Translations under genes and position numbers: made by a program
The notes under the pieces: generated by a model
The model's input: the letters and a program-made list of their open reading frames with translations, nothing else
Databases searched by the model: none
What the model was told of the DNA's origin: nothing
DNA from: Phyllosticta citribraziliensis
Taxonomy: Eukaryota
Direction of reading: 5' to 3'
DNA: 64,000 nt
Assembly: GCF_038025025.1 (NCBI RefSeq)
Contig: NW_027117338.1
Location: forward strand, 1,488,001 to 1,552,000
Shown here: positions 2,207 through 61,024 of the stretch, one piece after another
Layout: each line of letters begins with the position of its first letter
Numbering within the stretch: position 1 is the stretch's first letter

Positions 2207-2356
2207 GGCTTGGTGCAAGGTAGAGCTTGTGAATGCTATTCGTTGCCTTTTCCTATGATTTGCTTTGTGGATACACTTGAATGCCCCAGGGTACCGTGGA
2301 TTACGGTAGCTTGAATGCTTCTGTCGATTGCCTGTTGAAGCGGATGAAAACTCCTT
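2207..2356 (+). repeat. Degenerate 33-bp-unit array between the convergent 3' ends of copies A and B
   Basis: Core-like words at 2231 (gaatgctat), 2279 (gaatgcccc), 2313 (gaatgcttc), 2346 (gaaaactcc), spacing 48/34/33; preceded by ggcttggtgcaagg, which resembles the class I TIR. Confidence 0.45.
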
Positions 2357-2397
2357 ATCTACCTCCAACTTGATTTTGTATATTCGACATACACGGC

Positions 2398-4531
2398 TCA
2401 CTCCAGGGGCACCGGATCCACCACCTCTTCCCCCGTAACGCTCTCAATGCTGTGCATGACCGCCGCTATGGGCGTCATGAGCGCCCACCCCATGCAATGA
2501 GAACCGAACAGAAGTCCCACCCATGCCCCGGTGTAAAAGTCCTTCACGACCGAACCCGAATCCCCGCCAAATGCAAACGGTAGCGGAATCTGCCTGGAGT
2601 CTTCCGGCGTCTCCTCCGCGTAGCGATCAAAAACTTGAAGGCACTCGACAACGGTGCCGTACCTGTCGTGCCAGTCCCCGACTTGATCATCTTTCGCCAG
2701 AGACCTGTAAAAGCACGGCGCCGCGCCCAGTAGTCCGCACGTCCACCCCGTCATGCGTCCAAGCTTGACGACGTTTTGCGACAACTGTGCGTGACGAGAC
2801 CACTTTTGATCCTGGTTGTTTGCCCAGGCTGGAATTTCGAAGTCCCGTTGGACCCCCGGTATCCTCGAGAGAGCGAAGAAAGGCCGGGGCAATTCACTGA
2901 GGAGCCTCTCTGGGTCCACCTCGACGAGGGCCCACTCGAGGGCAAACTTCTTGTCCTCCAAGGCGAGGTGCTGGAAGCCCGACGTGGCGCGCACTGTGCC
3001 CGAAGGGAGCTCGGAGATTTCCACGACCTGAGATATCACCTCCTCGCACCGTGCTATCCCTCTTTTATACCTCTCCACTTCCCTTTTGGCCAACTCGTTC
3101 CCCATGTCCGCCCTGTCGACGCAAGACGGGTGGCCATCATAGCGGACGTGGACTCTCGTGTGCCAATCCTGGATGCTCTTGTTGAGGCGTTTGAGATCGG
3201 CCCTGGATTCGAACGTCGACGGAACTTTTACCGGGTAGGCGATGGAACCCCGGGGCAGACAAATCGATTGCAGTGGAGCTGGTTCGAGATCTATTCGTTT
3301 GTTAGCTCGGCTGACTGATGTCTGGTTGCAACAATGAATGACTGCTCCCTAAGCGCAACTGCGACAGCAAACGAATACTCCCAAACTGTGACTGCAGTAG
3401 TGAATGAATGCTCCTAAAGCGCAACTGCAACAGCAAACAAACACTCCTAAACTCACTTGCAGTGGCAAAGGAACACTCCATAAGCGCAACAGTGGCAGTA
3501 AACGAATACTCCCAAACTGTAATTGCAGTAGCGAATAAATGCTCCCTATACGTAATTGTGACAGCAAATGAATACTCCCAAACTGTAACTACAGCAGCAA
3601 ATGGATGCTCCCTGAGCGCACTCGCATTGCCAGGAGGGAGGACGGTAGGGCATGCTCACTTACTTTGTTGGAGTCCAGGTGTCTTAATGGCTTGAAAGCT
3701 CGTCAGAATGTGAGGACTCGTATCCCCATTATGCTTGGATCTGAGATGGATCAATCCACCCGCAGTGCCAGCGCCATTCTCTTCTCCTGCCGCTCCAATT
3801 CCGTCTCCTACTGACATGACATCACCCCACAAGTGATCATCAAGTTTTGTCGAGTCAGGATCCTCGCGTCCCAGGCCGTCGACCTTCAGCATCTGCCAAA
3901 TGGCCAGTCGACACCGCGTCCCATCCAGAGCGCTCACGATGTCCGCGCGAGCGTTGCTCCAGCCCGAATCGAGAACGTTTGCGGCCTCGATCAGCACCGT
4001 CAGGAAGCGGTCAGAGGAACACACCGAAGAAAAACGGACGAGCTGGAGGCTCTGCCAGAGCATGGACCGACGCTCCAAAATGTCCATCACTCTCGGTGCA
4101 AGCTTGTTCGCCCAGATGTCCACGGCCGCATCCTCGGGCTCGGCGGGCAGCAGTCGAGGATAGCCACGCTCGACCATCTCGACGTGGATCTGAACGTTGT
4201 CGACCAAGAAGTTTTGAAGGCCGCGCACGATACGTAGGACCGCGTTGCGCCAAGAAGCCTTCCCAGAGCCCTTGTTGTGAGCTTCGATGCGGAACATTGG
4301 AACCGTGGAAGAGGTTCCAGCCGTACGCTGGCGAACAAGAGCGAAGCGGTGAACCTCGACTGATTGCGCAACAAGGATGTCGTGAACGATTCCATCTGCC
4401 TCCTCCCAATCCTTCTCTTCTTGACGGTTGCAGGCTCTGAACGAAGAAGGCAATGGCTGCAGAACAGGCCACCCAACACGGTAAGTTTCTTCAACAATGT
4501 GCTGATCCACCTCTTCATCAGTACTTGCCAT
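2398..4531 (-). CDS. Fungal Ssy5-like trypsin-fold protease homolog, copy B; exons 4531-3664 and 3290-2398
   Basis: ORFs 3656..4600 and 2398..3105 join in frame across a 373-nt intron (GTAAGT at 3663, GCTAAC branch, TAG at 3291), same phase and position as the copy A intron. Motifs EETYRVGWP, GTAGG, ILTSFQAI, EWALV, KLGRMTGWTCG, GGDSGS. Confidence 0.72.
3333..3631 (+). repeat. Tandem array of nine 33-bp units (core GAATRCTCC) inside the copy B intron
   Basis: Cores start at 3340, 3373, 3406, 3439, 3471, 3504, 3537, 3570, 3603 (period 33, one 32). Confidence 0.92.
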
Positions 4532-4570
4532 TCTGGGCTGAGGAGGGGGCCTTGGCCGAAGGTGAGGATC

Positions 4571-4690
4571 CGAGGCCTGGTAGCAAAAGTCGTGGCACAC
4601 GATCCTAAGGTTATGCGGATCAGGGCGTGAATGCTCCCGATGACTGTTCTCTTAGACTCTTGAATGCTCCTAGACGCGTACTCTAGTCTA
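4571..4690 (+). mobile_element. Class I TIR element, left end plus two 33-bp units (no right TIR seen)
   Basis: cgaggcctggtagcaaaagtcgtggcacacg (4571-4601) matches 46147-46177 at 30/31; gaatgctcc at 4629 and 4662. Confidence 0.7.
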
Positions 4691-5620
4691 GAATGGTCTG
4701 AATGTTCGTTATTGGAAAGCGCGCCGGCATGTGGAGAGGGAGTAGTAGTAATTTTGCTTGTAGGCGGGAGGGGCGAGCTTTATAAGGGCTGAGTAGCCCC
4801 GCGGATGGCAGTTTTGACCAGGAAGCGAGGAGCGCGTTGAACCGTGGAATCACAGACTTCTCAGCATCGCCTCCAATCAACAATGCCATTTTCTGTTGAG
4901 TCTGTTTGTTTGTGGAAGCGCATTCAAATGGAAGGGCCTCATGGCGCCCATTGAAGCCGTCTTGTTATGGACGTCGACAAGCAAGACCAAGTTTGGGGGC
5001 AAAGGGGGAGCGTTCACTTCAACGAGTACTTTCCAGGAAGCACTCAAGCCACCGTATCCAGAGTACGGAGGAGGCGATGTTGGATGGTCGACTGAAGAGT
5101 GGAAACGTGCGTGAAAGAGAATCCGTAAAAGCAGGCACCTGTCTGTCCATCAGCCTGTGCCATTTCCCACTGCCATCAGAACAAATCACTTCCGAGCGAA
5201 AAGAGACCCACCAAGCACAAGAAACTCAGAGTCCCATAGATACAAACATACCACGGTACGATACCAAGCCATGCCCTGACCATGCAGTGATCTACTACGA
5301 ACTACTACTGCTTATTCCACTGATTTAGCTTGACTACATACATCCCATCCCGCGTCCCATCTGACGGTCTGGTGGCTGACCTGTGATCCGCAGTCCCTTG
5401 CCTTTCCCATTCATACCGATTGATTGATTGATTCCCATGCAACGAGTAACCTGTCCATGTCCTTAAACCCTGGTTAACCCGTGAAAGACTAATGTGCCTG
5501 AACGCTCGACGCAAACGAAAAAGAAAGAAGTGATACATGCCACGTAAGGAGTCATGGTAAAAGAAGATGATGCTTCTGCAACGCAACGAGAGACCCCATT
5601 GGGGCAACAGCCATGTTGGC

Positions 5621-8651: not shown

Positions 8652-11600
8652 TCACACGTCCACCTCGACCGCCTCGGTCAGGCTTATGCTTGTTCCTGCC
8701 GAGCCTGCTTGCAGCTTCTGAGCCTGAACCACGCCTCCCGACGATCCTGCGCTCCCCCGTCCCAGCACCTTGACCCCCTCGATTACCGCGCCCGAGTTGT
8801 ATCCAAAACTGCCCGATGTCGACAGCCGCTGCCCATCGAAATTGAATTGAATCTCGCTCGTCGTCGCCTGCTCAATCGACTCGCCGTCGTCCAGATACAG
8901 ACTCCCCGTCGCCTTGCCATCCAGCCCAGGCGCAATGATCAACGTGAAGTTTTGTCGCCGCAGCTCTGCTGTCGTGTTGGCCGATTTCACACGCAGCGGG
9001 ATGATGCTGCCGCCCCGAATGTGCAGCGGTATCGACGTGTAAGGCACTTGGGTAAGCAAAACGTACGATCCGTTCCCTCGCACGGCAGCGCCTGTCCAAA
9101 AGTCGTAGAAAATGTCGTTTGGCAGGTACATGGACACGCTGGTGCTGTCCTCGTCCGTCACAGGGCTGACCAGCAGCGAGTCGCCGTAAAAGTACTGCAG
9201 GTCGATCGCAAAGGTATTGACGTCTTCAGGGTACAAAAAGTACAGCGGGTTGATGGACGGAATCCCCGTCACCGTCTGTCGGTGAAGAGCAGTGTAGTAA
9301 TAGTCAAGCAGGCGATACCTCGCGTCGATGGCCGTCTTCGCGGCTTCTGCGACCAGCGGCCAACGGTAGAATTCCTGCGGAATCGACTCGTCGCTGTTGT
9401 GGTTCTAGCATTCCGTCAGCTCCCTGTCCACGCCTCACTCGACAAAGAAACTCACCCTGTAAAAAGGCGAAAACGCTCCCAGCGTGGCCCAACGTGCGCA
9501 CAGCGTCTCCGTCGTGTTGCCGTTGAAACCGCAAACGTCCGAGCCCACCATTGGAACCTGAAACAATGCAGCAAATTGCAGCAGCTCGGCGATTGAGATT
9601 CTGTACCAGAACCACCCGGAGTAGTTGTCTCCGAGCCAGTGCCCGACGTCCCTTCCTGCGCCAGCAAAGGTGCTCCGCGTGATGACCAGGGGTCGTTTGC
9701 CGGGCCTGCGATTCAGCATCGCCGTCCTGCTTGCCGTCGACATCATCGTGCCGTAGAGGTTATGCGCGTCGTACTCGGTGACGCCGTTGTAGTGAACCAC
9801 GTCGGTGAAGATTGTCAGATTCGAAAGCGCGCCAGCTACGTTGTTGATGCGGTACGGTGGATTCAGCAAATCGCGGAAACGATATCCAGTCTGTGGTCCC
9901 CGGTCTCGCTCCATCAACATCCTAATCTGCTTTCGCGACCTTGGCTGGAAATCCGATGGAAATCCGGGAATAGGTCTGCCAGAATTCTCACGCACTGCCG
10001 GAGGATCCGGAGGCGACCTGTTCTGTCGGGCAAAGCCGTAGGGGTCCTGGCATGGGTATGTACAGAAGTTGGATGCTTCGTTCATGTCGATCCACAGGGC
10101 ATCAATGTCGACACCGCTCTCGGCACTGAAGAAGCGCAGAAACTCGCCGTTCCAATAGTCGGTCACGTTCGGGTGAAACCAATCTGGGAAGACGGCTGGG
10201 CCTGGCCACACTACGCCGACAAAGTAATCCCCTCCTTGTTCTTTAAGAAAGACGTCTGCGGCAGCCCCGTTGTCGTAGGCAGTGTTGTTCTTGTAGGCGA
10301 CTGCGGGATCCACCATCATGATGTAGTGCTGCTGATGCGCGTGCAGATAGTCGACCAGCTCTCGCACCTTGTCCAAGGGGAATCTTCGAGGATCCAACGT
10401 GAACACCTTGCGGTAATCCATGTAATCAATGTCCGTCCACATGGTCTCCAGAGGGATGCCCGCCTGGGAGTAGTTGGCAATCGCTTCTGCCACATCGTAC
10501 ACATCGCGGTACCCGTATCTACAGTTGTGGAAGCCCAGGCTCCAGTAGCTGTGCATGGCGGGGAGACCAACCACCCCAGCGTACTGTTGGCTGACTTCCC
10601 TAGGCGATGGACCCGCGAGGAAGTAAAGATCAACGATCCCGCCCAGCGTGTTGTACTCCAGATACTGGCTTCCAGCGCTGTCTTTGTTGATCTTGATGTC
10701 CATGCCGTTGGAGTTGAGGAGAAAAACGCCATGCGTGCCCGAGCTTCCACGGTGGTCAAAGTACACCGGGTGATTTCCGTACAGATTGGTCCCTGGAAGA
10801 ACATTGGGAGCATCCCGACTCCATAGAGTGCGGATGTAATTAGTAGTATTAAGACGAACTGCAGGTCAAATCAGCTGTTAAGCCTTCATCGGATTTCCGG
10901 ACGTTCAAGACTCACAAGGATCTGTGTGCTCTCCCAACCCGTACAGGTACGGATTGTCTGGGAGTCGTGTTCGCAGGCGCAGATATTGCGTTTGAAAGAT
11001 TAGGTTGTACCCCGAAGTGTCGAAGAGGGTTTCGTTTGAGCCCTTGCGGACGACTTTAAACCAGAACGGACTTTGCTGGATTTGGAATTGAATGTTGGAG
11101 TCCGCAGGTGCCACAGAGGCATTACTTGAAGGCCGCGATACGACCGTCTCAGGCACTTGGTAAACATTTTCTGATGTGTCGAATATTTTGACATGCAGAC
11201 GGTCCGCTGTGTATTGTCAGCCCCTGCTACCAATCTGCCCGCTGAAATGAACGACTGCTCCTTAAGCGCAACTGTAGCAGCGAATGAACGCTCCCTAGAT
11301 GCACTCGCATTGCCTGAAAGTCTCATTTCTTTCGACACCACTGTGTCCGCCCAAGGACTGTTTCAATCTCAAGCCTTCCGGCCATTTCCGAGGCACTGCG
11401 CCGGGCTCCAAGACATCCAAGCAGAATTGCCATGTTTTTTGCAAAGTGCACCAAACAGGCGCGAACTGACATCCGACCAATTCAAGAAGGTGACGACAAG
11501 AAAAGCCTGGCGTGCGCCAATGCTTACTTACCGGTTTGGTATTCTACACGCAGTTTCAGTTCTGTCAGATCCCGGCCGTAGGTGTTGCACGCGGTTCCGG

Positions 11601-11814
11601 CAAGCCTCAAGTCAGCCGTCAAGCTAGAGCCGCGATCCTGGACATTTGACGCCGTGTATCCGGGGCAGCTGTCAATAGGCAAGGCGATGGGCCTCCGCTG
11701 GCCGGGGATGAATGGCGGATTCGGCGGGGGTGATGTCGGGCTCTGCGGTTCTGGAGTCGTGTAGCACGACGAAAAGAAGAAGCAGCAGGCCAGCAAAAGC
11801 CGCTCCCGAATCAT
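8652..11814 (-). CDS. Secreted glycoside hydrolase family 31 alpha-glucosidase, multi-exon
   Basis: Signal-peptide-like N-terminus; GH31 motifs [11 protein letters not shown] (nucleophile), HWLGDN (acid/base), [20 protein letters not shown]. First intron is 11531-11207 (325 nt). Confidence 0.95.
11246..11345 (+). mobile_element. Class II element remnant (two 33-bp units plus right TIR) in GH31 intron 1
   Basis: Cores at 11253 and 11286; start and end match the first and last units of the 3333-3631 array (ctgctccYtaagcgcaactg; gcactcgcattgcc); followed by gtctcatttctttcgacaccactgtg, the class II right TIR. Confidence 0.75.
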
Positions 11815-13248
11815 GGTCGTGGGTAGCGTTGGTTCCTGTGGCGGTGTGCCCGGTTTGGTGGCTGGCTGGCTGGCTGGCTACTTCGTCGACGACAACAACA
11901 ACAATGATAACGAGTGCGACATGTCAAACATGGGGAGCAAACGAAACAAAACCAAGCATATCCAAACCCAGAGTCAAGCGTCTTTATAGGCAATGAAGAA
12001 GCTCCCCAGCACAGCCCGGCCAGCGCCAGCCAGCCCGGCCAGCCAACCCGCAGGCCCGCTCGCACGCCTCCGCCGAACCAACAACACTACGACGTGTTTG
12101 CTGCCGGCCGATGCGTTTCACAGGTTCGCGCGCTCGCATCATCTCCGCAACCAAAACACGACATGGCCTGCCTGCGACCCTGCCTGACCGCCTCCTCCCC
12201 GCACGGTAGCTCTCTCGTCATCCCGCACCATCTAGGACGCGCCTTGGCTCCCATTTCCCCTTGTCTTTCTCTTTTCTCTCTCCTTGTCTCTCCCCAAAAA
12301 GTAAATCCTCTCCTCTTTTGGGCTTGCGACCTCATGGCCGCCATGTGCAACCCCTCTTTGTCTCGTTTCGTCGATGCGGGTGCGATGCCGCGGCCCGCCC
12401 GCTCCCCAAAGACGAGCCTCTACAGATCGCGGCTGATGTGCTTCCTTGTATTGATTCTAGTCGTCAAGTCCCACTGCTTGTAGTAGTGCGCCGCCTCTGG
12501 CGTTTGTTCAAGAGACCCGTCATATTTCTGTCGAAAAGGCGGCGGCCATGTGATGCTTTGGTGGAAGCCATCCGGCATTTTTCGGATAATTTTCCCAGTT
12601 CTTGACCACGCGGCTGCTTGGGCACAATATGGGGTGATGAGATCTGTGATGAGCGACTGGATGGACGTTAGCAGCATGTGAATTTTGTGCTTCCCCTGAC
12701 TCTGGGGTTGGGGTAAGAGCTGGGGATCCTTGCGGGCAGAGAAGGGAGAAGCAACGGTTCAAGGGACAGGCGTTGTGCGGGTTGCGCAAGTCGACGAATG
12801 CCGCCACGGAATGCGCTTCTGCCGCATGCGCTGAACTTCGCACGCTACAGATACATGAACATGTACCTAGGCGCAGGTAGTAGAGCTGCCCATCTGAGGC
12901 GGGGTTGACAATAGTCGCTGCCCATCGCATCGCGCTTCAATAACTCAAAAAATGCTTCTTTTGCATTGACATGGATGGATGGATTCGCTAGGACATGACG
13001 TCACATGAAGATCGATCGTCACCCCGCCTCACTTCACTTCGTCCAGCAACAGCGCAAATGTCCAGTATGACCACAGATACATGTCTGTCGACCGTCGACG
13101 CTGTTCCCATTGAAATTGTAGTGCTCGCCGTCATGCTGAGCTAGCTATTTGAGCTATAGCATCCTCCACGGCAAGGTCCTGCTTCCAGATTCGTTCCCTG
13201 AGCCAGCTGCTCACTTGTCTCTAACCGCTCGTTGCAACTCCAATCCAC

Positions 13249-14461
13249 CTAATCCATCTTGAGCTCGATCTGCTCCATGCCCGACTTTCCAGCGAAACCG
13301 AAGCCCTGCTGGCGGTAAAAGAGCTGAATGCTGTCGCGACGGGTTTTGTCGAAGTCGAGGCCGGCGTCACGGCAGTCGTCGATGAAGACAACTTCTTCCA
13401 GTTCGGTGAAATGCTGGAAGGAAGTGCTGTCGACAACGAAGTTGCCGAGGCGCAAAACCTTGACGGAAAAGCTGTGCATCGGGGTGGCGCTGCCAGCGCG
13501 GACCGCATTGCGCGCGTATGCCATGCTTAGATGGTCAAGATACTCGCCATAGCCACTCACGTGGTGCAACATTCCCTTTCCGTCCTGGCCACTTCGCAAA
13601 GGTCAGCTGGTGCTATTATGTGAAGAGCAAAATACTCACTGGTACTTGTCACCAGGGTTGCCCGCAAGCTTCCAGTGCTTGCCGATGCGAGCGAAGGGGG
13701 TACCATCCTCGGCGCGAGTGATGGGGTGAAGGAGCATTCCAAGCTCGAGGACGCGAAGATGGTTGTTGCGCCAGGCCGTCTCCCAGATGATGGACTGGAA
13801 AGACTCGGTCATGCCGTAGATGCACAGCGAGTCGAGGTTGCGGAAGACAGTCAAGTGTTTGAGGTCGTCATGGGTGAAGTATTCGGGGTGAGGAGCATCG
13901 TTCTCGCGGTCCTCAGCATCGGGGACGAACACGTTCAGGGAGAGCTGCGTGATGTCGGGGTTGACCACGGGCCAGATCTCCTTGGAGAAAGGCAGATCAG
14001 ACTCCCACCTGCGAGTGTTAACATTCCCCTCTGTTGAACATTCGGGTCACTTACTTCAGCGAAGTCAGTCCGAACATCTTGGCCAGAACACCCTTGATCT
14101 TGCGGACCGCCAGGGTCCACTCAAGCTCGTGCTTCTTAAGGACATCGTTGTTGGCGGCAGCATCGCTGTGGGAACGGGAACGCGTCAAGTCGCCAGTGCG
14201 GACCGAGCCGGTATCGACAGGGACTTGGGGCTCGAGCTTGCCAAACCTGTCCTCGATCTTGTCGACGTCTTCGTGACTGTAGATCCAGGGACCGACGATC
14301 ACGAATTCCGTCGCGGTTGCGAGGTTCTCCTTTTCCTTTCCGGTCAGGAGGTCGTCGACGCGACGAATGACGCGCTCCAAGGAGCAGGTCTTGTCCACCT
14401 CGCCCGCGACGGCGCCGGTGAGGATGATGATGCGGTCGGCATCGTTGTGAACGGGCGTCAT
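13249..14461 (-). CDS. Hypothetical protein, about three exons
   Basis: ORFs 14051..14500, 13636..13968 and 13249..13599 are separated by GT-AG introns (donors GTAAGT ~14054, GTGAGT ~13639) and look coding; no family recognised. Confidence 0.6.
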
Positions 14462-15535
14462 GGCGGCTTTCAGGGGGTGGGTGGATGAATAGTAATTCAA
14501 GGGGTGAATAGGATTGTTGAGCGCCGAGATGCCTGTCGATAGACAATCTCAAAGCTCAGTGGGGAGGGTGGTGGTTGTAGAAAGTCGAAGATCGTGGCGC
14601 GGCTTTGAAGTCATTGACCACAATGAGGTTCGCTTAGCAGGCGCGCCTTCCTTCAGTACAGGTGGGCAGTATCCAGGCGGCATAGGGGCGCGACTTCCGT
14701 CGCAAACTCAGGCTGCTTAACTAGAATGCATTTCTGCTTAGAAGTCACATGCGCAACTGCGCCAGGCGCAATCACAAAGTGATTTCTGTATCTGGCATTG
14801 CACAAGTGTTAAATTTTGGTGACTGCCATGCCACATGCACTACGTCTAACAGTCAGTCCTACTAGTCAGGTTTCCTCTTTGGGGCCTGAGTAACATACAA
14901 CATAGGGGGTCTACTAAGGAGGCTCCATGCGCGTTCACACTTGTCGCTGTTGCAGGCTGACTGCGAAAATCATGTTTGCTTGTATAGCGCCCATTTGTCG
15001 TCGGTCTCCACGCCCTAGATTGGACTTGTCAGTGTTTCTGAAGCAGGACTGAATGAGGCAGCAAAAATTGCTGTAGTTATTGCCTTGGAGATAGTGCAGC
15101 TTGACTTGACGAGCGCAAACACAGTTCCAAACTCGCAATCAACCTAGAGAACAGCGTGGATTGGAAGCAAAGCTTGAATGTGGCGCACCGTCTTTTGCAG
15201 CAAAACACGCCAAATACCCTGAAGCCAGCAATTTCCATTTGCAACGAACGATATGGGGAATCTCAAACGCTCTGCTGCTTGTATAAAAACAGGATATTAT
15301 GCAAGAATTGTCGAATACGCAGGTACAGCGGGCGGGTCCAGCCGGCCCATCGCGAGATAAAGACCAAATGTTCTGCCACTGATTGCTTGAAGACGCGTCT
15401 GAAGACATCGGATGCAGATCAGAGCAACGGCAAAGTCCGAGCTCGCTGGCCGAGCCAAAGACCCAGCTCTGCATGTGCAAATGAAAGATCGGGTTGTCGG
15501 TGCAGCCTCAATTCGTGCCGAAACGGAAGCGCTCC

Positions 15536-16342
15536 CTACCCCGTCCACACCGGCGGCCCAGGTGGATCATATCGTTCCGGGATTGGATACCAGATGTTTA
15601 TTTTGATCCCCGGATCGTCGACCTTGTAGGCACCCGGGATGGCGACTTTTGGGCCAGGGTTTCCGGTACCGCCGCCCGTGACTCGAACCTGCGCGCAGCC
15701 GACGTAGAACTGTGCCCCATTGTCCTGGCTTGCCTGGTGGAGAGATATTTGCTCCGCGCGGATGAGGTATTCGCCGTCGGGCGTAGACTTGGGAATGGTA
15801 GCATTGAGCATCTTCGAATCTAGAGAAATCGTCAGAAGAATGTTGGAGGGCTTTCGGCCACGAATGAAGGATGCGCACTCATGCCAGGCCAGTCCATTTG
15901 GTGCTCCGTAATGTTCGCTTGCGACGCAAAGATCTTGAACCAAACGTCCCCATCCCCAGCGAAATCCGCCGCATTTACGCCATCTGGCGCTCTGGCCATG
16001 TAGACCTGGAAGGGGCCGGGATGCGTCATTGCTTGTGACGCTTGGAATGCGATCTCTTCGCCAGCCTGCACCTCTTTCGTGCTGGTCCTGTTGGGTGGAT
16101 TTGCTTCATTGCAGCGAAGCGCAGCAGAGTTGACGTCGCCTTTCACGGGCGATTGTCCGTAATGGTCGTCGACTAGCCGCACAAACTCCCACTCGCCGCT
16201 GGGCTGCCCTTGTGTGACGAGTACTGGATAGTTCCCTGATCTTGTCATCAGCGTTTGGTCCGTCGGCCTCGTCTTTGGATGGCTTACAGTGTGCAGTGCC
16301 TACGCTGCAAGCAGCAAGGAATGAAATGAGTGTGTACTTCAT
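15536..16342 (-). CDS. AA9 (GH61) lytic polysaccharide monooxygenase
   Basis: Signal peptide followed by His1 (spliced H-W-N-Y-P), second His in [36 protein letters not shown]-terminal PPGPPVW. Confidence 0.93.
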
Positions 16343-17685
16343 CACGACCGCGGCAATGACAGACGAAATGAACGGATGGAGAGAGCCCAGAACTTCCCTT
16401 GTCTTTCATTTCCCGAGCCATTGTTATATATTAAAGGGCTTGGTGTTACTTGCGCCTGCGAGTTCTCTCACATCTTTGCATCAATCTCCTGGGGTAATGC
16501 ATATACTCAACAGCAATCCGAGAGGTGGTGTGACGAGACGGAAACTTGGCTGCGCCATGACGTCGAATCATACATGCCGTGTGCATAATTCGAAAAAGGC
16601 CCTGGCGACTAGTCAGGGCCAAAGGTGCCCTGGCGCCCTCTTTTGAGATTTTGATACCCAGTTTGGGAAACGTGACAGCTTCCCTGGTCCTGCACTCTTT
16701 AATGCACACAGCCTAAGCCTGGCCACGACTTGGACCTGCGCCCTCGCGAATCTTATCTCCTCGGCCGCGTGGCAGTTGCAAACGCTGAGAGTAGTTTTAG
16801 GCTGAAGGGAAAACGCCGACAAGCGAGTGAATGGTCTTTCGGCGATTCTAGACCGCACCACTGATTCTCTTGACCTCTTGATTAGTAGCGTCTTGCAATT
16901 CGGCCCAGGAAAGCTGAGGCAGACGAGAGGATACTAGCTGAGAGCTACTGGAGGGGACGCCGATCTTTGCTTACTACAAGACAAGTGTCGGTATGTCGGC
17001 GGTTATCTTTCAGAGAGAAGCTGTCTTCATGCTTGATTGATCAGGGAAAGAACGGTGATTGAGTATCAGATCACCGAAATGAGGCGTCACGAAACTGCGA
17101 GAGAGGACAAACTCGGCGAGCTCTTCATGGAGATGGGGGACCTTGCAGTGGTACAGTGGCGGTGCGGCGGCAGCGCAGCGGGGCGGGTTGACGAAGCCCC
17201 AGGTTGCGCAAGGCGTCGATCCTCAGTGTGGATATGGATCTGTGGAATGTACATGGCCAGAGATGTCGGCGTCGGCAGGTCAATGTCTCCGATGATTTTG
17301 CAAACCATCCAGTTGGTTCGCCGAATGCCTGCGCAGCTCTTACAAATTGAGTGACAAACTGTGGAGAAGGTGGCTTGAAAGGTTGAGACTAGCCCAGAAA
17401 CTATGTAGGGCGGTCTCGCAGCATGAGCATTGACGTTCATGGAAGGATTGGTTGCCCAGAAGAGATGGGTGAAGTAGTTCTGTAACTCGCAAATGTCACA
17501 GCTCGAGTGGCTGGTGAGCGAAGCGGAATCCGGGCGAATGAGGAGATCTGGGAAAGGGCGGCGAAATTGAAGTGAAGGCAGACTACAGATGAGCGCTGCA
17601 AAATGGTTTGGGCGTGTCGAGCGAGTGGGTGTTGAGAACGACGATGGAACGGCGAGGAGCGAAGTCTGAGGACCAGAGGAGGTTC

Positions 17686-17926
17686 CAAGGCTTAGTAGTA
17701 GCAAAAGTCGTGGCACACACAACCCAGCCGATCACTACTTGATGCTTGAACGCTCCCCGTTAGTCACAGTCATAGCGCAAGAATGCTCCCCATTACTTAC
17801 AGTTACAGCGCACGAATGCTCCCTATCGGTCATTCAATACGTAGGTAGAGTAAATGAATGAATGCGCCCTCGTAGGCGTGACCAATTCTCTGCTCTTATT
17901 GTGTGCCACGACTTTTGTGACCGAGC
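17686..17926 (+). mobile_element. Class I TIR element (MITE-like) with four GAATGCTCC units
   Basis: Perfect 17-bp inverted repeat caaaagtcgtggcacac (17702-17718) / gtgtgccacgacttttg (17901-17917); cores at 17748, 17781, 17814, 17860. Confidence 0.85.
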
Positions 17927-18441
17927 GCTTATTCTTTTCACAACCTGATTGGCTAGTGATTCTGACCAATCGCTGCCCCCAAAAGACGGCCACGACAATC
18001 CGGATTCACCTGGACTGCCTGAGCAACACCCATTGCATCACGCTGTCTGGGACCTCAGGTCTATTGTTCAGAGCCGCTTGCAACTTGAGACCCTACGATA
18101 CTGAATCCAATCCAATTCCGCACAGCCTTGGCGACCACAAGCGGACGCCGGATCCACGAAAACAATCGAATCGCTCACGTCAACAAAGAGGCTCAGGACC
18201 AATGTGCCGTGACTTCTTCAATTGAAAGACTCGACGTTTGTGTACCCATGAGTCTTTATTCAAGAGGTACGATGATAAAATGCTGTAAGAGTCGGTTGAT
18301 TCTTCCGCACAGCAGTCCTGCTGCATTTCCATAGCTGACATGGTTGTCAAGTTTCTTCACAAGCTCCCTTGGCTGCTCTCCAGCTTCAAATCCCGAACAA
18401 TCGTCTTTAAATACGACAAGCGCAACAGTTTACTGTATCTC

Positions 18442-19334
18442 ATGGCCGAAATTCGGGGCAAAGAGCGGCGAGTGGGTACTGGCTTCAAATGTCCCAAAGA
18501 TTACGTTTGGCTTAAAAAGGGCGACCCATACATGACGCGCCATTGGTAGCCTCCCCAACTCAGGCACCGTTGCGACACCCGCTAACAAATTCATGCAGCC
18601 GAGAAATTACCTTGGCAGGGGGCAAGACCCTCTTCACAAAAATCGATGCCAAAGAGCGGCCGGTCGGTCTATACTTGCCGCAGCAAGTCTATGAGGTAGT
18701 CAAGACCGCCGATGCCTCGACAAAGGAAAAGCGCCAGGCCGCCACGAAGAGAAAAGATGCACTTACTCTTGAAAAGGCACGCGTTGCTTTGAACAAGTCC
18801 TTCCCTGCGATGCCCAAGGAAGACGAGGAAGCTGTACTAACTCGCGCATGGAAGAAGAGCAGCGGACGCGTTGGTCGAACTGAGACAATTTCCATGGAAG
18901 TCAAAGTCAAGCTAGGCGTGACTGCGCACGCGCGGCATGCGTATACCGAATACGACGAGCTCCTCAAGCAAGGTTTCACGCAAAAGGTGGCTAGAGAAAA
19001 GATCAAGACTGACGTTGAGGATATTGTGTCAAAATGGCAGGGGATGTCTCACATGTCCAAGGGGATGATCAGGGACTCTGAAGGAGAAGAATTGTCAGAA
19101 TATTCGGATTCGGATCCGTCAGCCGAAGCCACATCAATTACCAGGACCTTGAGGAAGAGGACGACAGCCATGAAGAAGACGACCGAGAATCTGACCTCTG
19201 AGAATGCCGCTACAGAGACCAGAAGTCGGAAGAAGGCAGCAAGGCCAGCCAAGCGCGCGGGTAAGGCGGTTGTGCCGAAGAGAAAATCAAACACAAAGAA
19301 AGCGTCAAAAGGCTCAAGACCAAAGAAAAGGTGA
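18442..19334 (+). CDS. DUF2293-family protein with basic C-terminal tail
   Basis: Two exons (intron ~18546-18598); SGRVGRT...TAHARHAYTEYDELL...AREKI...IVSKW pattern characteristic of DUF2293. Confidence 0.8.
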
Positions 19335-19649
19335 AAGACGGTAAAGACAACTGTTAGATTTAGACTCCTAGAAGGTCCCAGGAAGGATTAATGATGTTCC
19401 CAAGCAAAGCGCAGTGTCGCAACAACCTATCAGCTTTCACCATTCTATTGTACAAGCCAGGTCGTGCAGTCGTTGAAAAGACCTGGTGAACCCGCGGGGT
19501 ATCTCGATATTTTGGCCTAAGCAATTAACGCCTGTTCCCTCCGAGCTAACGCCAACCTCATCCAATGAAAGGGAAAATGCAGAGAGCTTTTGACCTTGAG
19601 TCCCTCCCGAATGAATGCTCATGAGCAGACAATTAAAAATAAGATGCTC

Positions 19650-20936
19650 TCATCTTTCCATCTTCGCGGCCCGCGACAAGAGCCTGATGTTGCTCAGAAA
19701 CGTCTTGACCACCTCCTCGTAGCAAGCCTCTGGGGAGTTGTTCATCGTAAGCAAGCCTTGGTGGATCAATGCACCTGTGTCGATTTCAACTTCTAGCTCG
19801 TGCACCTTCTCGCCAATGCCGTCGTCCTTCTTGACCTGTGTCAGGTCAATCTGGGTGTGCTGGTGCTTGTAGCTAAGGCGGTCCTTGAGGCGCGCCACCT
19901 CGTCCTTGGCTTCCAGAAGACTGACTTCCTCGGGAATCTCCAATTCAATATTGACGCTAATGCGGCAGTCGAATGGCTCGCGGGGGGAGTGTATGTCGAG
20001 ATCGGCCACTCGGCACTTCAAGATGCGCGCCTTCATCTTGTGGGTAACTTGGTCCCGCGTAATTCGTACGCGAGGCTTGCGGTGATGTCCTTTGGCATAT
20101 ATGTATGGCTGCACCGAAGGTGGCAGGGCTGCCAGGTCGGCATCTTCTGCATGGTAGAATGTGTCCTTCTCCCGCAAGTGTTCGTACCGCATTTTGGGAC
20201 GATTCGACTTGTGGCTGTCGGCCAACGACTTGTTCAAAAAGTCGTTCAGGAATTTGTGTTGTTGCTGCAGAAGGTGTCAATTTGAGGCTCCGCTAAGAGG
20301 ATGCGTGGTACATACTTCGCTCATAAAACTCCGGAAAGACAGGCGCTCGGGTGGGATGGCAAGGACGGCCTGGCTGGCGATTGGGTATGAGACGCGATCG
20401 TTGGTTTCCTTGCTGACGAGGATTCCCAGCTTGCCCTCGACCTCGAGCTTGACGCCGTAGTTTGCGCCGTACGGATTGTTGCCGTGAAGATCCTCGCGCA
20501 TCACAACATTGTTCCAGAGAAAGTCGCACACCTGACGCGTTATTTCGTCATAGGGCGCAATGTTGGTGAGACTGGGCTCCAATTCTGAAAACTCCTGCGG
20601 AGGCACGGGGATGGGCTTGGGCAGGGCGTGGGATAGACTTTGTGTTTGCTGAACCGGCGGCGGGACATTGTCTACGGCGGTTGGCTGCTTTGGCTCGGTG
20701 CGCGTTAGAGACGACCAGTCGAAGCGCTTGGCCCAGTTCGGAATTTCTTTTCGCATGGTCGCCTGTCGGTGCAGCTGCGGTGACGCCTGAGGGACGGGCG
20801 ACGTTTTGGAAGCTTGCGAGGGCGCCGTGGACGAAGGCGTCTGCGATAGGACTGAAGCCGCAGAAGCTTGACGGCCGCTTTTGGGGGTCTTGGGAGGCAA
20901 GTCCCCCTCGTCGTTTAAGACTGTCCGAATGTCCAT
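19650..20936 (-). CDS. CET1: mRNA capping enzyme beta subunit (RNA 5'-triphosphatase, CYTH fold)
   Basis: LEVEGKLG, RVRITRD, DCRISVNIE, RLKDRLSY, QIDLTQV, HELEVE tunnel motifs; one intron near 20310-20268. Confidence 0.92.
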
Positions 20937-21460
20937 TGCAGCGATCAATACGAGACAGGGGTTCTGGTCGATGTGGGCTCTGAAGCGTCGACAAGGGACG
21001 TATGCTGGTGTGTGAGGCGGCGAAAGGTGAGGGCGCTCGGCGGAGCTCCGCTGTGCTGCTGGCGATGGTGGCGCGACGCGGGAGCGACTTGGTTCGAAGG
21101 CGCGGTGGATGCGCAGAGGATCAACAATGGCGCCTACAAGGCCGGTCTCTGGTGAGCACGACGCTCGTCGGCGACAAGGTTGGCGGCCACATGAAGCTGT
21201 AGAGCAGGCCTGGATTATACCTTACCTTCGACCGACGGAGCGCTGGCGGCAGCTGGTCACGTAAGCGGTGCGGCCTCACATGCCTGCCTGGCGGCGGCTT
21301 GGCGCAAGTCGAGCTTCCAACCGCGAGAGCTCCCCCATCATCATCACCAACACATCCTCCCTCTCGCACCTGCACTCGCCCCATCCCCACGATCCACTTC
21401 ATGACGGCCGTCTCCCACCCGCGCACGCCCGTCTCGACCCAACCCTCAGAACGCTCCATT

Positions 21461-26210: not shown

Positions 26211-26427
26211 CACAGTGGGTGTCGAAAGAAATGAGACCTCCACGATCTGTCTGCAGCAGTAAATGATTTCCTCCCACGCGAAACTTTGGTGGCATATGAA
26301 TACTCCCAAAGCGCAGGTGTAGCAGCGAATGAATGCTCCTTGAGGGTGATCAGAGGAGGAGTGAATGAATGCTCCCTAGACGCACTCATATGGACAGTAG
26401 GTCTAATTTCTTTCGGCATCCACTGTG
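26211..26427 (+). mobile_element. Class II TIR element (CAC...GTG ends) with 3-5 units
   Basis: TIRs cacagtgggtgtcgaaagaaatgagacct (26211-26239) and aggtctaatttctttcggcatccactgtg (26399-26427), 26/29 complementary; cores at 26265 (degenerate), 26298, 26331, 26367; flanked by aggc on both sides. Confidence 0.85.
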
Positions 26428-27338: not shown

Positions 27339-29932
27339 ATGGGAACATCTCCCCCTTTTTTCGAACCGAGTGTCGGCTATGGCCTCATTGTTGGCATGGG
27401 CGCCGCCTTCGCCATTGGCATGTCTCTACTTTCCTGGGGCTTGTCCAGATACATGGCTGAGGTACAAACGTCTGAAATGTACATGACTGCCAAACATTCG
27501 GTGAAGACGGGACTAGTAGCTACAGCGGTTGTTTCCTCTTGGACAATTGCGGCAACACTGCTCAGTTCAACCACTGGTGAGGAAAACTACTGCTTCTAAT
27601 TAGCATTACACTGACGATTTTCCGCTTCCAGATGGGTTCCTCTACGGTGTCAGTGGTCCATTTTGGTATGGCGCTGGCGCAACCTTCCAGATATTCATGT
27701 TCTCTCTGGCTGGTACGTTCTCTCCTGAGATTTGGGAAGCTTGTACTAATCGAAGAAGCCATCGAATTGAAGAGGAAAGCACCTCGAGCGCATACGTTTC
27801 TGGAAGTCGTCAAGAAGAGATATGGGCCAGCTGGTCACATTACTCTGATGAGCTACAGTCTGATCTTCCAGATATTTACGACAGTGAATCTGCTTGTTGG
27901 CGGGAGCACCCTTTTCAGCTCCATGACGGGCATGAATCGTGATGCGGCTTGTTTTCTTTTCCCGATTGGAGTTTTGATCTACACTTTGTTTGGAGGTACT
28001 GCAAACCACTCTCAACTGTTCTCTGTGGCCACGCTGACTGAAAGTCGAAGGTATCAAAGCCACATTTCTCACAGATTGGGTGAGTTATCAATGGCCCGTC
28101 ACAGCAGGTATCGAAAGAAATGAGGCTTCCTTGGTGTAGCTGCTGTCGTGAACGACTGCTTCCTGAGCGCACCTGCTGCAGCGCATGACAGCTCCCTACA
28201 TGCAGCTGCAGTACTACGAGGTCGCATTCCTTTTGATGTCTCCTGTGTCGTTTAAAAAGAAAACAGCTGACATCGCAAGGCCCACACCGTCATCATTTAC
28301 ATTGTCATGATCATCACCGTCTTTGCCGTCTACACGTCTTCCTCGACCATTGGCTCTCCGGATCGGATGTGGGAGCTGCTGCACGAAGCAGCCAGGCTGC
28401 ACCCTGTGGAAGGCAACGAATCCGGAAGCTACCTCACCATGACGTCGCAAAATGGCGGCTTCATTGGGCTGATCTTTGCGGGAGCGTCGTTCGCTTCGTG
28501 CGTCGACTCGCAACTCTTTCAAAAGGCCATCGCAGCAGACCCAGCAGCCACATTTCCCGGATACATGCTTGGCGGCCTTTGCTGGTTTACGATTCCGTTT
28601 GTATTGGCGACGACATTTGGCCTCGCCGCTGCGGGGACTGAGCATTTGCCCATCTTTCCGACGTATCCAAACCGCATGACAGATGCGGAAGTGAGTGCTG
28701 GCATGGCGATGCCGTACGCGGCTTATGCGATCATGGGCAAAGGCGGAGTCGCAGCTTGTCTGGTTTTGGGATTCATGGCCGTCACCTCCGCGGTAAGTCA
28801 ACACAGCTCTTCGGGTCCGACGAAACTGACAAACTCCTAAGATGTCTTCCGAAACTGTAGCCACCGCTGCCCTTGGAACCTACGATATTTACAAAGCCTA
28901 CTTCAATCCGAAAGCCAACAGTAAGCAGCTTGTTCGCTGCGCCGACGTCATCGTAATAGTCTTCGGTATCGTCGTCTCCTGCATATCCGTGGCGTTCAAT
29001 CACGCCGGCTTCAGCGTCAACTACCTGATCACCTCCATCGGCATTTTCGTGGATAGCGCCATTATACCCATGGCGTGTACCATCATGTGGAAAAAGCAGT
29101 CGCTCTTGGCCGTCATAGTCGCACCCCTCGCCTCGACCTGTGCTGCCGCCGCCGCCTGGTTTCTCACGGCCCACAAGTACTACGGCGCCGTAACTATCGC
29201 TTCGACATCTGAGCCGATCCCACTGGTTGCCGGGAACATAATGAGTATCTGCGGCCCGGCAATTTTGACGCCATTGCTCACCTACGTGTTCGGCCCTGAT
29301 GACTTTGACTGGGCCAAATTCAAGGAGATCAAAAGCGACGTCGGCGCTCTGGAGGACCTGCGGCGCGGAGGAGAGGAGGAGGACCTAGCCATCGACGTCA
29401 ATGCGGCGCCCGGGCACGGCGAGGAGCACGACGAGGAAAGCAAAGAGGCCGAAGAGGAGCGTGATGCGCGTCTGTTGCGTGCCCGTACAAAAGCAGGTTG
29501 GTGTTGTGCCGTGCTGTGTCTTAGCTTCTGCATTCTGTGGCCCATTCCGATGTATGGCTCTCACTATGGTACGTACATCCGCCATCTATTTCCTACGAGT
29601 ACTTCCTTCGCCAGGGAATCCCACTAACACTCCACCTTGCAGTCTTCTCGAAACCTTTCTTCCGTGGCTGGATTGTTGTGGTCTTCCTTTGGGCATTTTT
29701 TGCTGCCATCACCATCACCTGCTATCCCATCTGGGAAGGCCGCGCCTCAATCGCACGCTTTTTCAAGTACGCAACGGGCCGGGCGCGTCGCCAGCCGACA
29801 GGCAGTGATGGTGCTACTGGGACTGCTTTCGTTGTGCAGGGCGTGGTGCCCCCTTCTATTGAGCGTAGCAGTGGTAATCATAGTCGAGAAGGTGGCGAGA
29901 AGGGGGCGGAGGCAAAGGTTGTTGGAGGATAG
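27339..29932 (+). CDS. Urea/polyamine active transporter, sodium:solute symporter family (Dur3-like), multi-exon
   Basis: SVKTGLVATAVVSSWT, YGVSGPFWYGAGA (spliced), ELKRKAPRAHTFLEVV, GSYLTMTS, FQKAIAADP, MAVTSAMSSE, WPIPMYGS; many hydrophobic helices. Confidence 0.92.
28100..28247 (+). mobile_element. Class II TIR element inside the Dur3-like intron (28080-28279)
   Basis: Left cacagcaggtatcgaaagaaatgagg, right aggtcgcattccttttgatgtctcctgtg; cores at 28154 and 28187 (33 apart); flanks ccgt / tcgt. Confidence 0.72.
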
Positions 29933-30091
29933 GCAGAGATTACTATTTTGGCTTGAGAGTTCAATGTCGAGCATGTTCAGACCATAATCCTTTTCTTAAT
30001 TAGTCTCAGATGGCATTGGTAAGCTTTGAAAATGAACAAGCGAGCACGAACCATGCATCAGAAATTGACTATCATATCATCATGAAAAGAA

Positions 30092-30176
30092 CAGCATTCG
30101 GAGCATTCAAGATCCTGTACGTTGGAATACTCAGGAGCATTCAACCATGTGAGTCGTTGCGACAGGGAGCATTCGA
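30092..30176 (-). repeat. Three-unit array of the same core on the minus strand
   Basis: ggagcattc at 30100, 30134, 30166 (spacing 34, 32), between the convergent Dur3-like and TFA2 3' ends. Confidence 0.75.
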
Positions 30177-30435
30177 GCTCCAAGTCGTTTGCGAGCCTTC
30201 ACTCACGCCCTGAAGAACGCGTAAGGCATTAAAGGGAAGACTGGAGTGGGTTTTGTGCTTTAGCATCTCAAAATCGTTGACCATATGTAAATCCAAAACG
30301 CCGCGCTAAAACATGCAAATGCAGCGAACCCCTGCCCAGTCCGATGTTGCAAGGCCGACCCGTATACGAGTTGTTTGGCGGGGTATCTTTATGTAAGAGG
30401 TGACCTCGATATGTTTAAATCAAAAAGCCCCGAGC

Positions 30436-42280: not shown

Positions 42281-42406
42281 GGGGGTGTGGCGCAATGGTA
42301 GCGCGTCAGATTCCAGCAATATCTTCATTTAGGACCACACAAAAGGCCTGTTGAAGACAATATTGGAAGTTCCTGAAGGCTATGCGTTCAAATCGCATCA
42401 TCCTCA
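42281..42406 (+). tRNA. tRNA-Trp (CCA) with ~54-nt intron
   Basis: Acceptor stem GGGGGTG/CATCCTC, D arm GCGC-AATGGTA-GCGC, anticodon loop TT-CCA-G, T arm ATGCG-TTCAAAT-CGCAT, T-rich terminator. Confidence 0.88.
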
Positions 42407-43353: not shown

Positions 43354-43470
43354 GGGGGTGTGGCGCAACGGTAGCGCGTCAGATTCCAGAGCCTCCGTGC
43401 AGAATCATTCTTGGTGTTCTCGGTTACTGGAACTTCCTGAAGGTTGAGCGTTCAAATCGCTCCATCCTCA
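43354..43470 (+). tRNA. tRNA-Trp (CCA) with ~45-nt intron
   Basis: Same exon sequence as 42281 with compensatory T-stem GAGCG/CGCTC; unrelated intron; TTTT terminator. Confidence 0.88.
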
Positions 43471-43487
43471 TCACCTTTTGTCACCTC

Positions 43488-45454: not shown

Positions 45455-46146
45455 CCTTCGTCCAGCGCTTGTTCTGGAAGAGCGAGAAAATTGAAAGTGG
45501 TGTATGGACGGTTGGCGTGGAAGGCCTATGTGTGCTCGGTCTCTGGAAAATATGTCGCAGGGGTTTACGCGTGTCGATATCGTGGATTTGGTGCCGATGG
45601 AACGGTGACAAAGAATGGCAACACGAGATTACTGTGGTTAGTTGTCTTATACATACTCGGGGGTTGGTGTTGAACCACATATATCAGCATTTTTTTGAGC
45701 GAGAGGAACCGATGGTCAACACGGTCAACCACCAGTCTTTGAACCTTGGAACCCTCGCTCGAATACGTAACAGAGCCACCCTCTACCGAATTTTGTGAAA
45801 GAGACGTCAAAATGAATCCATGGGCACCTTTTCCAAAACTAATCACCCCAGTGGTCAGCGCCATCAATGGTATACATGTATGCGGGAGTGTTGTGATATT
45901 TGCTTTCGAATTTGAAGGGTGTTGTTGTGTGTCATACATATAATGCCTCGCACAAATATGAGATACATAAGATGAGTGAGGCAATGAAAGGAGAAAGGAG
46001 ACAAACAGAAACGTGTCAGACTGCCTTTATGCTTGTCTATCTGGTTGAACCATTTTTCCACACGCCAATGTACGTCCCGAGAAGGAGAATCGAGGAAAAT
46101 AATCGATAGCGCCAGATCCCACACTGTTGGAACTTTCGTGAGAGAA

Positions 46147-46283
46147 CGAGGCTTGGTAGCAAAAGTCGTGGCACACGCAACCTCTGAATCACTACAGTGG
46201 ACGCTTGAATGCTCCCTGATGGACGTGACTGGTTCCCTACCTGCTCTTGTCTTTTGTGTCACGAACTTTCCGACCAAGCCCCG
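46147..46283 (+). mobile_element. Class I TIR element with a single clear unit
   Basis: Left cgaggcttggtagcaaaagtcgtggcacac, right tgtgtcacgaactttccgaccaagccccg; gaatgctccc at 46207; internal sequence colinear with the 17.7-kb copy. Confidence 0.8.
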
Positions 46284-46316
46284 GAAACATTCGTGTGCTC
46301 GTCATCATTGTCGTCA

Positions 46317-59759: not shown

Positions 59760-60057
59760 GGGAATATGCAAAGGGCCTAATTTACGGGCGTCAGTGAACA
59801 GGTCTAAAGGAGTCGGATGAGCGCAGGGTCGGGACGTAGGAGGGAGAGGGTTGGGTGGGAGAATAAGTACCCGGGTATGCTTCGAGATAAATCGCATCGC
59901 ATTGCATTGAATTGGTTGAACCCGCTGCCTATCTGCCTCCCTGCGGTGCCCGCGCTGCCCGCGTGTCTACATACATGTACCAGATCACACCAGCTCAGCC
60001 GAGATGGCTCAGAGATGCTCGATCTCTGGACTCGAGGCTGTGGTTGTGGTGCCGTCT

Positions 60058-60329
60058 CACAGTGGGGGGTGTCGGAAGAAATTGGACGCGTTCACTGCCA
60101 CTGCTGCGCGTAGGGGCAGCCATCAACATGTACCATTGCAGCGACGCCTAGGGAGCAGTCATCTACCATACCATTTCAGCGACGCCCAAGGAGCAGTCGT
60201 CGGCCATCCCAGCAATGCCCAAGGGGGCAGTAATCCACCATCACAAATGCGATGCGCGCAGGGAGCTATAGTTTGTTGCTGCATTTAGAACCGGGGAATC
60301 TCATTCCATTTCTTTCTACTCACACTGTA
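60058..60329 (-). mobile_element. Class II TIR element with five units in reverse orientation
   Basis: cacagtggggggtgtcggaagaaattgga at 60058 and tccatttctttctactcacactgta ending 60329; ggRgcagt-type cores at 60113, 60152, 60190, 60224, 60262 (spacing 34-39). Confidence 0.7.
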
Positions 60330-60723
60330 CTCCGCTCGAACAAGCCGGTCAGTCCTGCCCTGCCAGAAAGGCCTGCGCCGTGACCCATCCATTCGTGTGT
60401 CTGTCTGTGGTCTGTATACGCTGTACAATCATTCCCACAGCCGCTGTCTGCCGTCTCACTCTGAGAAGTGTGTCGACATCTGACGCGGCCTTCTGTGTCT
60501 TTTCCGTCCGTGAGTCCGAGATTTTGTGTCTTCCTGCGCTGCGATGTGTACATTATCGGATTTGGGACGGCCGCGTCGAAGCAGGTCCTGTGATATACAG
60601 GCTGTCGCTCTCCCCCTTCTACCAGCTCCTGCCAAGCCGACGAAGCGCCGTGATGCAGAGATGGGAAGTTGACTACGCCTTGTGCCCTGCCCTCGCGACG
60701 AAGAGGCGGTCTTCAAATTTCTA

Positions 60724-60880
60724 CGGTCGCAAAAGTCGTGGTGTGGTGCACAGAATCCCAAGGCTCAATACATTGGGGCTCGAATGCTCCCCGATCCTAG
60801 TCCCTTAGGGGCTTGATTACTCCTTGACTGACCCCTCGCCACCTTTGTTGTGTGCCACGTCTTTTACGACCGAGCCTTGG
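60724..60880 (+). mobile_element. Class I TIR element with two units
   Basis: cggtcgcaaaagtcgtgg ... tgtgccacgtcttttacgaccgagccttgg; gaatgctcc at 60782 and gattactcc at 60815 (33 apart). Confidence 0.78.
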
Positions 60881-61024
60881 ACGTTCGAGTTGCCCAGTCG
60901 TGTTGTACATGTGCTTTCTGCGGCAACTCCAGCGCCACGATTGCCGCCATGATGTCGCGTAGCTAGGTAGTCTCGGGTATTTGGTCGTGCTCAATAATAA
61001 TTTGGTGGTGAGCTCGCGCTGAGC

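Follow-up and report, generated by a model that had tools for sequence, protein, structure and literature searches.

MITEs (miniature inverted-repeat transposable elements) that hold a central cassette of tandem repeats, with segments of reduced variability, are a described kind of element, and the sections of PMC3879986 that deal with them name DTC84 of the clam Donax trunculus, the pearl family of bivalves, and the DINE-1-like elements of insects. For CACTA transposons, the part of PMC2613891 that bears on our subject presents the subterminal repeats as cis-determinants bound by TNPA. In fungi, MITE families have been described in Epichloe (PMC3227409) and Mycosphaerella graminicola (PMC4522978), as far as the relevant portions of those accounts go. 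Here we analyse a stretch of 64,000 nucleotides of Phyllosticta citribraziliensis DNA (contig NW_027117338.1, positions 1,488,001 to 1,552,000), referred to as the window and numbered from its first letter. An initial annotation had described about 11 dispersed loci in it that carry a short core, GAAYRCTCC, usually at intervals of 33 bp, on both strands and within two unrelated shells of terminal inverted repeats (TIRs). All 11 loci are present where it placed them, and judging from their sequence they are assignable to two families of non-coding elements, 130-330 bp long, that have TIRs. On balance, we lean towards the view that these loci are relics of two tandem-repeat MITE families in which the core is a cis-acting site for a mobilising protein, and that they have decayed neutrally after insertion.

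Like DTC84, pearl, and the DINE-1-like elements, in the portion of PMC3879986 that describes them, the elements in the window are small and non-coding, have inverted-repeat flanks around a central array with a handful of units at most, vary in unit number, and show unit variants at fixed array positions. A segment of reduced variability in each unit, and flanks that serve as a “cassette” for the repeats, are also shared with the elements of that account. The unit here is 33 bp long and thus five times shorter than theirs, which that portion gives as about 160 bp (PMC3879986), the host is a fungus, and one unit occurs in two unrelated pairs of arms. Tandem Repeats Finder (TRF) found no microsatellite adjoining any array, and the flanks are not AA; given these absences and the shorter unit, we regard the elements as working like the pearl, DTC84, and DINE-1-like elements, not as members of those groups. 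The animal tandem-repeat elements have reportedly been linked to rolling-circle Helentrons, from which the present elements differ in having true TIRs, as well as longer, probable flank duplications in two copies. Finding one unit in two unrelated arm pairs is a mildly unusual twist on what is otherwise an ordinary kind of element. As in the Epichloe and M. graminicola MITEs, so far as the consulted portions describe them (PMC3227409, PMC4522978), the copies are short, abundant, and degenerate, lie in gene-rich ascomycete regions, and are grouped by TIR and flank duplication. The M. graminicola families are described there as sharing a TIR around different interiors, whereas here the interior is common and the TIRs differ, and the portion of that account available to us does not mention internal tandem arrays (PMC4522978). 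Among the papers listed on tandem or subterminal repeats of fungal MITEs, minisatellite cores, and fungal CACTA repeats we found no such fungal family, which is not proof of absence, and a literature search with a 10-mer of the core gave primers only.

The core is far more frequent in the window than composition would give. GAAYRCTCC has 23 matches against 2.39 expected and GACTGCTCC has 6 against 0.73, and none of 100 shuffled sequences reached either count; with up to one mismatch allowed there are 45 matches, compared with 15.45 in 20 shuffles (maximum 24). These matches group into 11 clusters, and the cores of three of them (2231, 28154, and 60116-60270) are degenerate. Isolated cores elsewhere in the window number 6 where about 3.1 are expected, which is no clear excess. 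Neighbouring cores on the same strand and no more than 120 bp apart form 18 pairs, while shuffles give 0.44 (maximum 3). The histogram of their distances bears out the reported spacing: 11 of the 18 are exactly 33 bp, one is 32, and two are 34, so that 14 fall within 32-34 bp, and the other four are 36, 38, 46, and 65 bp. TRF likewise reports a 33-bp array at 3357-3612 with 7.8 copies, together with higher-order periods of 66 and 131 bp, and a second 33-bp array at 17748-17823. Arrays do lie on both strands, as had been said, with nine loci on the plus strand and two on the minus strand, a bias that is not significant (two-sided binomial probability about 0.07). Sites of the AbaA/TEC1 type were tried as an identity for the core and rejected, as their consensus needs a pyrimidine where the cores carry A or G.

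Both TIR shells are real, and the same unit sits inside each. We defined the arms with nhmmer profiles, alignments, and searches for direct and inverted repeats. In class I they measure about 27-35 nt and centre on GCAAAAGTCGTGGCACAC (7 arms at 4 loci), and in class II they measure about 31 nt and start with CACAGTGGGTGTCGAAAG (5 arms at 3 loci). The profiles were built from these same arms, and the sole independent match is a weak, correctly placed class II pair at 60058-60087 and 60328-60288 (nhmmer E 0.026 and 1.5) around the array at 60116-60270. With this pair, and with weak alignments to the class I left arm at loci 30100 and 2231, the description of some loci as lacking visible TIRs does not hold; they are decayed or truncated copies. 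The arms form stems with long pairing of 20-30 bp (z -3.95 for the 26211 copy and -3.40 for the 17683 copy), and the array by itself folds no better than shuffles (z -0.45). Likely target duplications flank some copies. AGGC matches at 4/4 positions on either side of the 26211 copy, a repeat that becomes 7/8 when the ends are moved two bases inward (P about 4e-4), and the class I copy at 46143/46287 has a flanking direct repeat of 6/6, or 8/10. The other two-armed class II copies match at 3/4 (3/8) at 28100 and 2/4 (2/8) at 60058, and the other two two-armed class I copies have no flanking direct repeat. The pentamer GTGAG precedes three class I left arms at a similar distance (4562-4566, 46138-46142, and, on the reverse strand, 30217-30221). 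It may belong to the arm as an outer part, reflect a preferred target, or be due to chance, and at 46143 it overlaps the putative flank duplication.

These ends invite comparison with established transposon superfamilies. In CACTA (En/Spm) elements and their deletion derivatives, according to the portion of PMC2613891 that covers them, a short motif is likewise reiterated inside the ends and kept while its surroundings diverge between subfamilies; that motif acts in cis and is bound by a protein that the element encodes (PMC2613891), a role that the core might play here by analogy. Class II ends also start with CAC. They read CACAG...CTGTG, however, and not CACTA; the 3-bp flanks that a CACTA-type duplication would give match at 1/3, 0/3, and 0/3 positions, the clean repeat being 4 (or 8) bp long; and the units are all direct, evenly spaced, and fill the whole interior where CACTA elements have two subterminal blocks. 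MITEs of the hAT type have subterminal transposase-binding repeats and an 8-bp duplication. Such a duplication is one way to read the flanks of the best-kept class II copy (7/8), and short motifs recur inside its ends, as in hAT elements, whereas the other two-armed class II copies give 3/8 and 2/8, and the point at which contigs from other copies lose likeness lies two bases outside the one that the 8-bp reading requires. We also considered a Tc1/mariner origin for class II, whose ends resemble those of mimp-like elements, and rejected it because no TA flanks are present.

Within the units, the initial annotation had judged the core and period to be better conserved than the spacer, and this stands with a qualification. 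In core-anchored units, core and spacer identity are 0.77 and 0.43 within loci, 0.76 and 0.32 between loci, and 0.81 and 0.31 (about the random level) between class I and class II, contrasts that are inflated by the choice of anchors on the core itself. In the one array whose register is set by TRF, columns 1-9 agree in a mean of 7.9 of nine units and the other columns in 6.1 of nine. At locus 30100, the three cores match at 27 of 27 positions, while an alignment of the intervening spacers is barely possible. Each class II spacer column carries 0.64 bits, and direct-repeat families cover whole units; the spacers are diverged homologues within a class, not unique inserts, and the loci are therefore not a repeat-spacer array. 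Unit number ranges from 1 to 9 per copy. The first unit of the class II copies at 3340, 11253, and 28154 has the same variant core, GACTGCTCC or GACTGCTTC, from which it follows that arrays had two or more units before insertion and travelled as part of the element. Decay, in turn, has affected all parts together. The 26211 copy has arms scoring 38 and 33 bits and cores with at most one mismatch in three of its four units, while in the 60058 copy the arms score 11 and 5 bits, the cores are decayed, and the period is 35-38 bp; old copies lose arms, cores, and period jointly.

To look beyond the window, we aligned contigs of four public runs to positions 11001-31000, two of them from one related organism (A; runs X1 and X2) and one each from two others (B, run X4; C, run X5). 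X1, X2, and X5 are RNA assemblies, as their GT..AG joints make clear, and the assembled contigs alone were used, which cannot reveal small RNAs, strand, or abundance. In each run, 8 to 32 contigs lose their likeness to the window exactly where the class II arm begins, at 26211, and continue into unrelated flanks, so the class II family must be multi-copy in at least three related organisms. Among the 12 listed of 51 rows from contigs of other copies, nine join two cores through the letters of those copies, and all 10 core-to-core intervals in these nine rows are exactly 33 bp, with different spacer letters. In organism C, five letters stand in place of 30112-30161 and two cores remain, at a distance of about 21 bp, and array length thus varies between related species. 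No joint skips an element exactly among the 15 listed of 127 joints in 11001-31000. We also scanned a metagenome collection for two exact cores 29-37 bp apart, a pattern too short for a collection of that size, and obtained at least 116 loci; among the matches listed, the spacings are spread without a peak at 33, the multi-core loci are unrelated repeats of other periods, and likeness to the elements is limited to one 18-nt match.

These loci have the features of MITEs: TIRs, small size, variable unit number, and multiple copies with unrelated flanks in three organisms, to which position-specific unit variants and the joint decay of cores and arms can be added. Of the three options that the initial annotation offered for the unit, transposase-binding internal repeats fit best. 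We propose that the 33-bp array would travel with its element and later grow or shrink by in-register slippage or unequal exchange, which would keep the period. In the lineage of copies that still transposed, the core of 9-11 bp (GAAYRCTCC, usually followed by C) may have been kept as the site for a mobilising protein, either the DNA-binding domain of a transposase or an accessory protein, as with the subterminal repeats of CACTA and hAT elements, and the 24 bases between cores would be free to drift. Movement itself was presumably by cut and paste, and neutral decay of cores, period, and arms would follow insertion. Because the genome is gene-dense, copies would survive just in introns, UTRs (untranslated regions), and spacers. 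The inner part of the class II arm, GAAATGAGACCTCC (26228-26241, and the same part of other class II arms), resembles by eye the core with its 5' flank, GAATGAATGCTCC. Such a likeness is expected if one protein reads both arm and units, and the array may have originated by tandem duplication of this inner arm segment.

Several points weigh against this explanation. We saw no autonomous partner, transposase, or empty site in the 64-kb window or among the listed contig joints of the four runs, and the binding of a protein to the core is wholly inferred. The anchoring of units on the core flatters the contrast with the spacer, and in the TRF-defined array CTCC alone is invariant. Units within an element all point the same way, whereas known subterminal binding sites often occur in both directions. 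Clean flank duplications occur in just one of three two-armed class II copies and one of three two-armed class I copies, and the length of the class II duplication is ambiguous between 4 and 8 bp. Lastly, two families with unrelated arms have one unit, which needs either related mobilising proteins or an exchange of modules. A bolder, doubtful version of the same idea would take up this last point: the 33-bp unit would be a portable array of evenly spaced sites for one DNA-binding protein, exchanged between two unrelated MITE shells, and the array itself would be the unit of selection. The two families may then share or compete for a mobilising or silencing protein, and some arrays, such as the one in the TFIIE-beta 3' UTR, may have been adopted by the host.

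The gene context bears on the remaining readings. Pfam matches mark the window as fungal and gene-dense (AA9, GH31, RPN2, TFIIE-beta, Mlp1/TPR, a UvrD-type helicase, and an F-box protein). Three loci lie inside introns, one in a transcribed 3' UTR, and the others beside or between gene ends. The module had been said never to occur in an exon, which is correct for coding sequence, where we found none, and incorrect for the 30100 array, which lies in a 3' UTR exon. The 11253 copy is in a minus-strand intron of 325 nt (11207-11531, joint 11206>11532, ends CT..AC) that is spliced in X1, X2, and X5; about 190 nt of this intron (11346-11531) are other sequence besides the class II copy. The 28154 copy is in an intron of 200 nt (28080-28279) within a sodium:solute symporter gene on the plus strand. 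Its GTGAGT donor follows an open frame, and its AG acceptor precedes another, which looks like membrane helices; both flanking exons are in phase 0, and the splice signals lie outside the arms. The 3340 array takes up an apparent intron of 373 nt (3291-3663) in a minus-strand gene, as suggested by GTAAGT...CTAAC...AG signals and an open joined frame of 587 aa. Once the insertions are subtracted, the introns around the 3340 and 28154 copies measure about 44 nt, and the introns proven in the window measure 49-85 nt, except for one of 160 nt (21601-21760) and the 325-nt intron that holds the 11253 copy. In RNA contigs covering 30051-31000, the 30100 array lies within the 3' UTR of TFIIE-beta, sense to the mRNA. 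The same UTR has a 62-nt minus-strand intron just downstream of the array (29989-30050), spliced in X1 and X2. Orientation to the host transcript is mixed overall, antisense for the 3340 and 11253 copies and sense for the 28154 and 30100 copies. The codon-usage profile was too weak for mapping exons in the window. Coding repeats were discarded as a candidate because some periods are not divisible by 3 and because a retained intron would run into a stop immediately at 3663.

The main competitor to the two-family MITE explanation, which we hold to be a real but clearly lesser possibility, is that the arrays are ordinary minisatellites carried by transposons, without any binding, whose units are young duplicates and whose core combines ascertainment with a start point for slippage or unequal exchange. 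Hypervariable minisatellites of vertebrates are dispersed tandem arrays with locus-specific units and a common short core, some of them in introns, and the shared core of these classical arrays was proposed to be where slippage or unequal exchange starts. They are not known to be bounded by TIRs, and their core is assigned a role in recombination, not transposition. The 66- and 131-bp periods fit the minisatellite idea well, as they point to recent local duplication within the 3357-3612 array, and so does the fact that the TRF-defined array has only those four invariant columns, with several of its spacer columns scoring like core columns. Differences among the units of this array are transition-rich (52 vs 27), as in neutral or RIP-like decay, and the anchoring on the core would add to the apparent conservation. 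Plain duplication sits poorly, on the other hand, with perfect cores between spacers that barely align at 30100, with a core identity of 0.81 against a spacer identity of 0.31 between the two classes, and with a period of exactly 33 bp despite different spacer letters in the listed copies from three organisms. The readings that follow are all less likely than either the MITE or the minisatellite explanation. It is unlikely that the host has co-opted the arrays as phased sites for a fungal DNA-binding protein with a regulatory, chromatin, or recombination function, spread by the two MITE families. MITEs are said to have spread transcription-factor motifs in plants, every locus here lies in or adjoins a transcription unit, and the core is kept across both shells. 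In such a gene-dense window, though, proximity to genes is unavoidable, and isolated cores are in no clear excess. The loss of cores, period, and arms together in old copies, and the replacement of the middle of the 30100 array in organism C, argue against constraint at the level of the host, and with it against the phased binding sites that the initial annotation had put forward.

Its other suggestion, a repeat-spacer array cut into small RNAs of about 33 nt, or in a variant TIR hairpins that feed RNA silencing, is very improbable in our judgement. Several copies are transcribed within introns or UTRs, and the arms are capable of forming the stems noted above. The spacers, however, are homologous to each other and are not unique acquisitions, the array has no fold of its own, the orientation to host transcripts is mixed, and none of the loci is hit by an Rfam family, whether at gathering score or with E values up to 5. 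Scans of a viral collection gave 4 loci for the class I arm, none for the class II arm, and 13 for two cores 32-34 bp apart, without likeness beyond the pattern, so that nothing in the viral contigs truly matches the arms, the arrays, or their spacers, and no link to viruses appears in that collection. We give almost no credence to the idea that these are introner-like elements that create new spliceosomal introns, which would agree with the presence of 3 of the 11 copies in introns, two of them about 44 nt long without the insertion. The window already contradicts it: the splice sites at 28080 and 28279 lie outside the element (28100-28247), intron 11207-11531 contains much sequence besides its element, mRNA contigs retain the 30100 copy, and 8 of the 11 copies are not in introns. 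The earlier interpretation as a whole is thus upheld as regards the conservation of core and period, and not as regards small RNAs from a repeat-spacer array or phased sites kept by the host.

Returning to the two MITE families, six of the loci belong to class I. The copy at 2216..2345 (+) is degenerate, with a faint left-arm alignment and three core-like motifs (2231, 2279, and 2313), each with 1-2 mismatches, and sits between two convergent genes. At 4566..4720 (+), the left arm (E 8.7e-10) is followed by 2-3 units, the right arm was not found, and the copy sits upstream of a minus-strand gene, about 50 bp from its likely start codon. Both arms are present at 17683..17929 (+), between divergent genes, with 4 units that are 33, 33, and 46 bp apart, and at 60712..60884 (+), between convergent genes, with 2 units. 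A single unit and a direct repeat on the flanks characterise 46143..46287 (+). The decayed, class I-like copy at 30060..30225 (-), the only one of this class in reverse orientation, has three perfect cores that are 32 and 34 bp apart.

Class II has five loci. The best kept is 26211..26427 (+), with both arms, 4 units, and a direct repeat on its flanks. The array at 3321..3650 (+) is of class II type and consists of 9 units of 33 bp without arms; its first unit and right-hand tail are common to class II copies. The copy at 11209..11345 (+), within the minus-strand intron, has 2 units, and its right arm is good and its left end degenerate. The copy at 28100..28247 (+), within the 200-nt intron of the plus-strand gene, has 2 degenerate units. 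The only reverse-strand member is an old copy at 60058..60329 (-), downstream of the UvrD-type helicase gene, with weak arms and 5 decayed units whose period is now 35-38 bp.

Two other regions of the window are worth recording. Rfam identifies two intron-containing tRNA genes on the plus strand, at 42281-42406 and 43354-43470 (49.9 and 49.2 bits), which sit inside a duplicated segment whose copies are separated by about 1.07 kb (repeat families D7 and D8, identity 81-95%); neither was called by ARAGORN when set for bacteria. Between 32000 and 38000, a strong positive AT skew (0.22-0.33) extends over the long Mlp1/TPR-like coiled-coil gene; a 21-bp repeat is present at 36750-36813, and CAG and 9-bp coding repeats at 37908-37965.

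If the two families were as dense across the genome as in the window, with 11 loci in 64 kb, they would be among the more abundant MITE systems of ascomycetes. They would then have lengthened the introns and UTRs of many genes, and would confuse both gene prediction and repeat masking. One unit in two arm pairs would be a compact case for the movement of tandem repeats between transposon families, and a unit shared by two shells would also reveal the short motif that a mobilising protein reads. For annotation, this means that the loci should be treated as transposon relics, not as a new regulatory or defence system.

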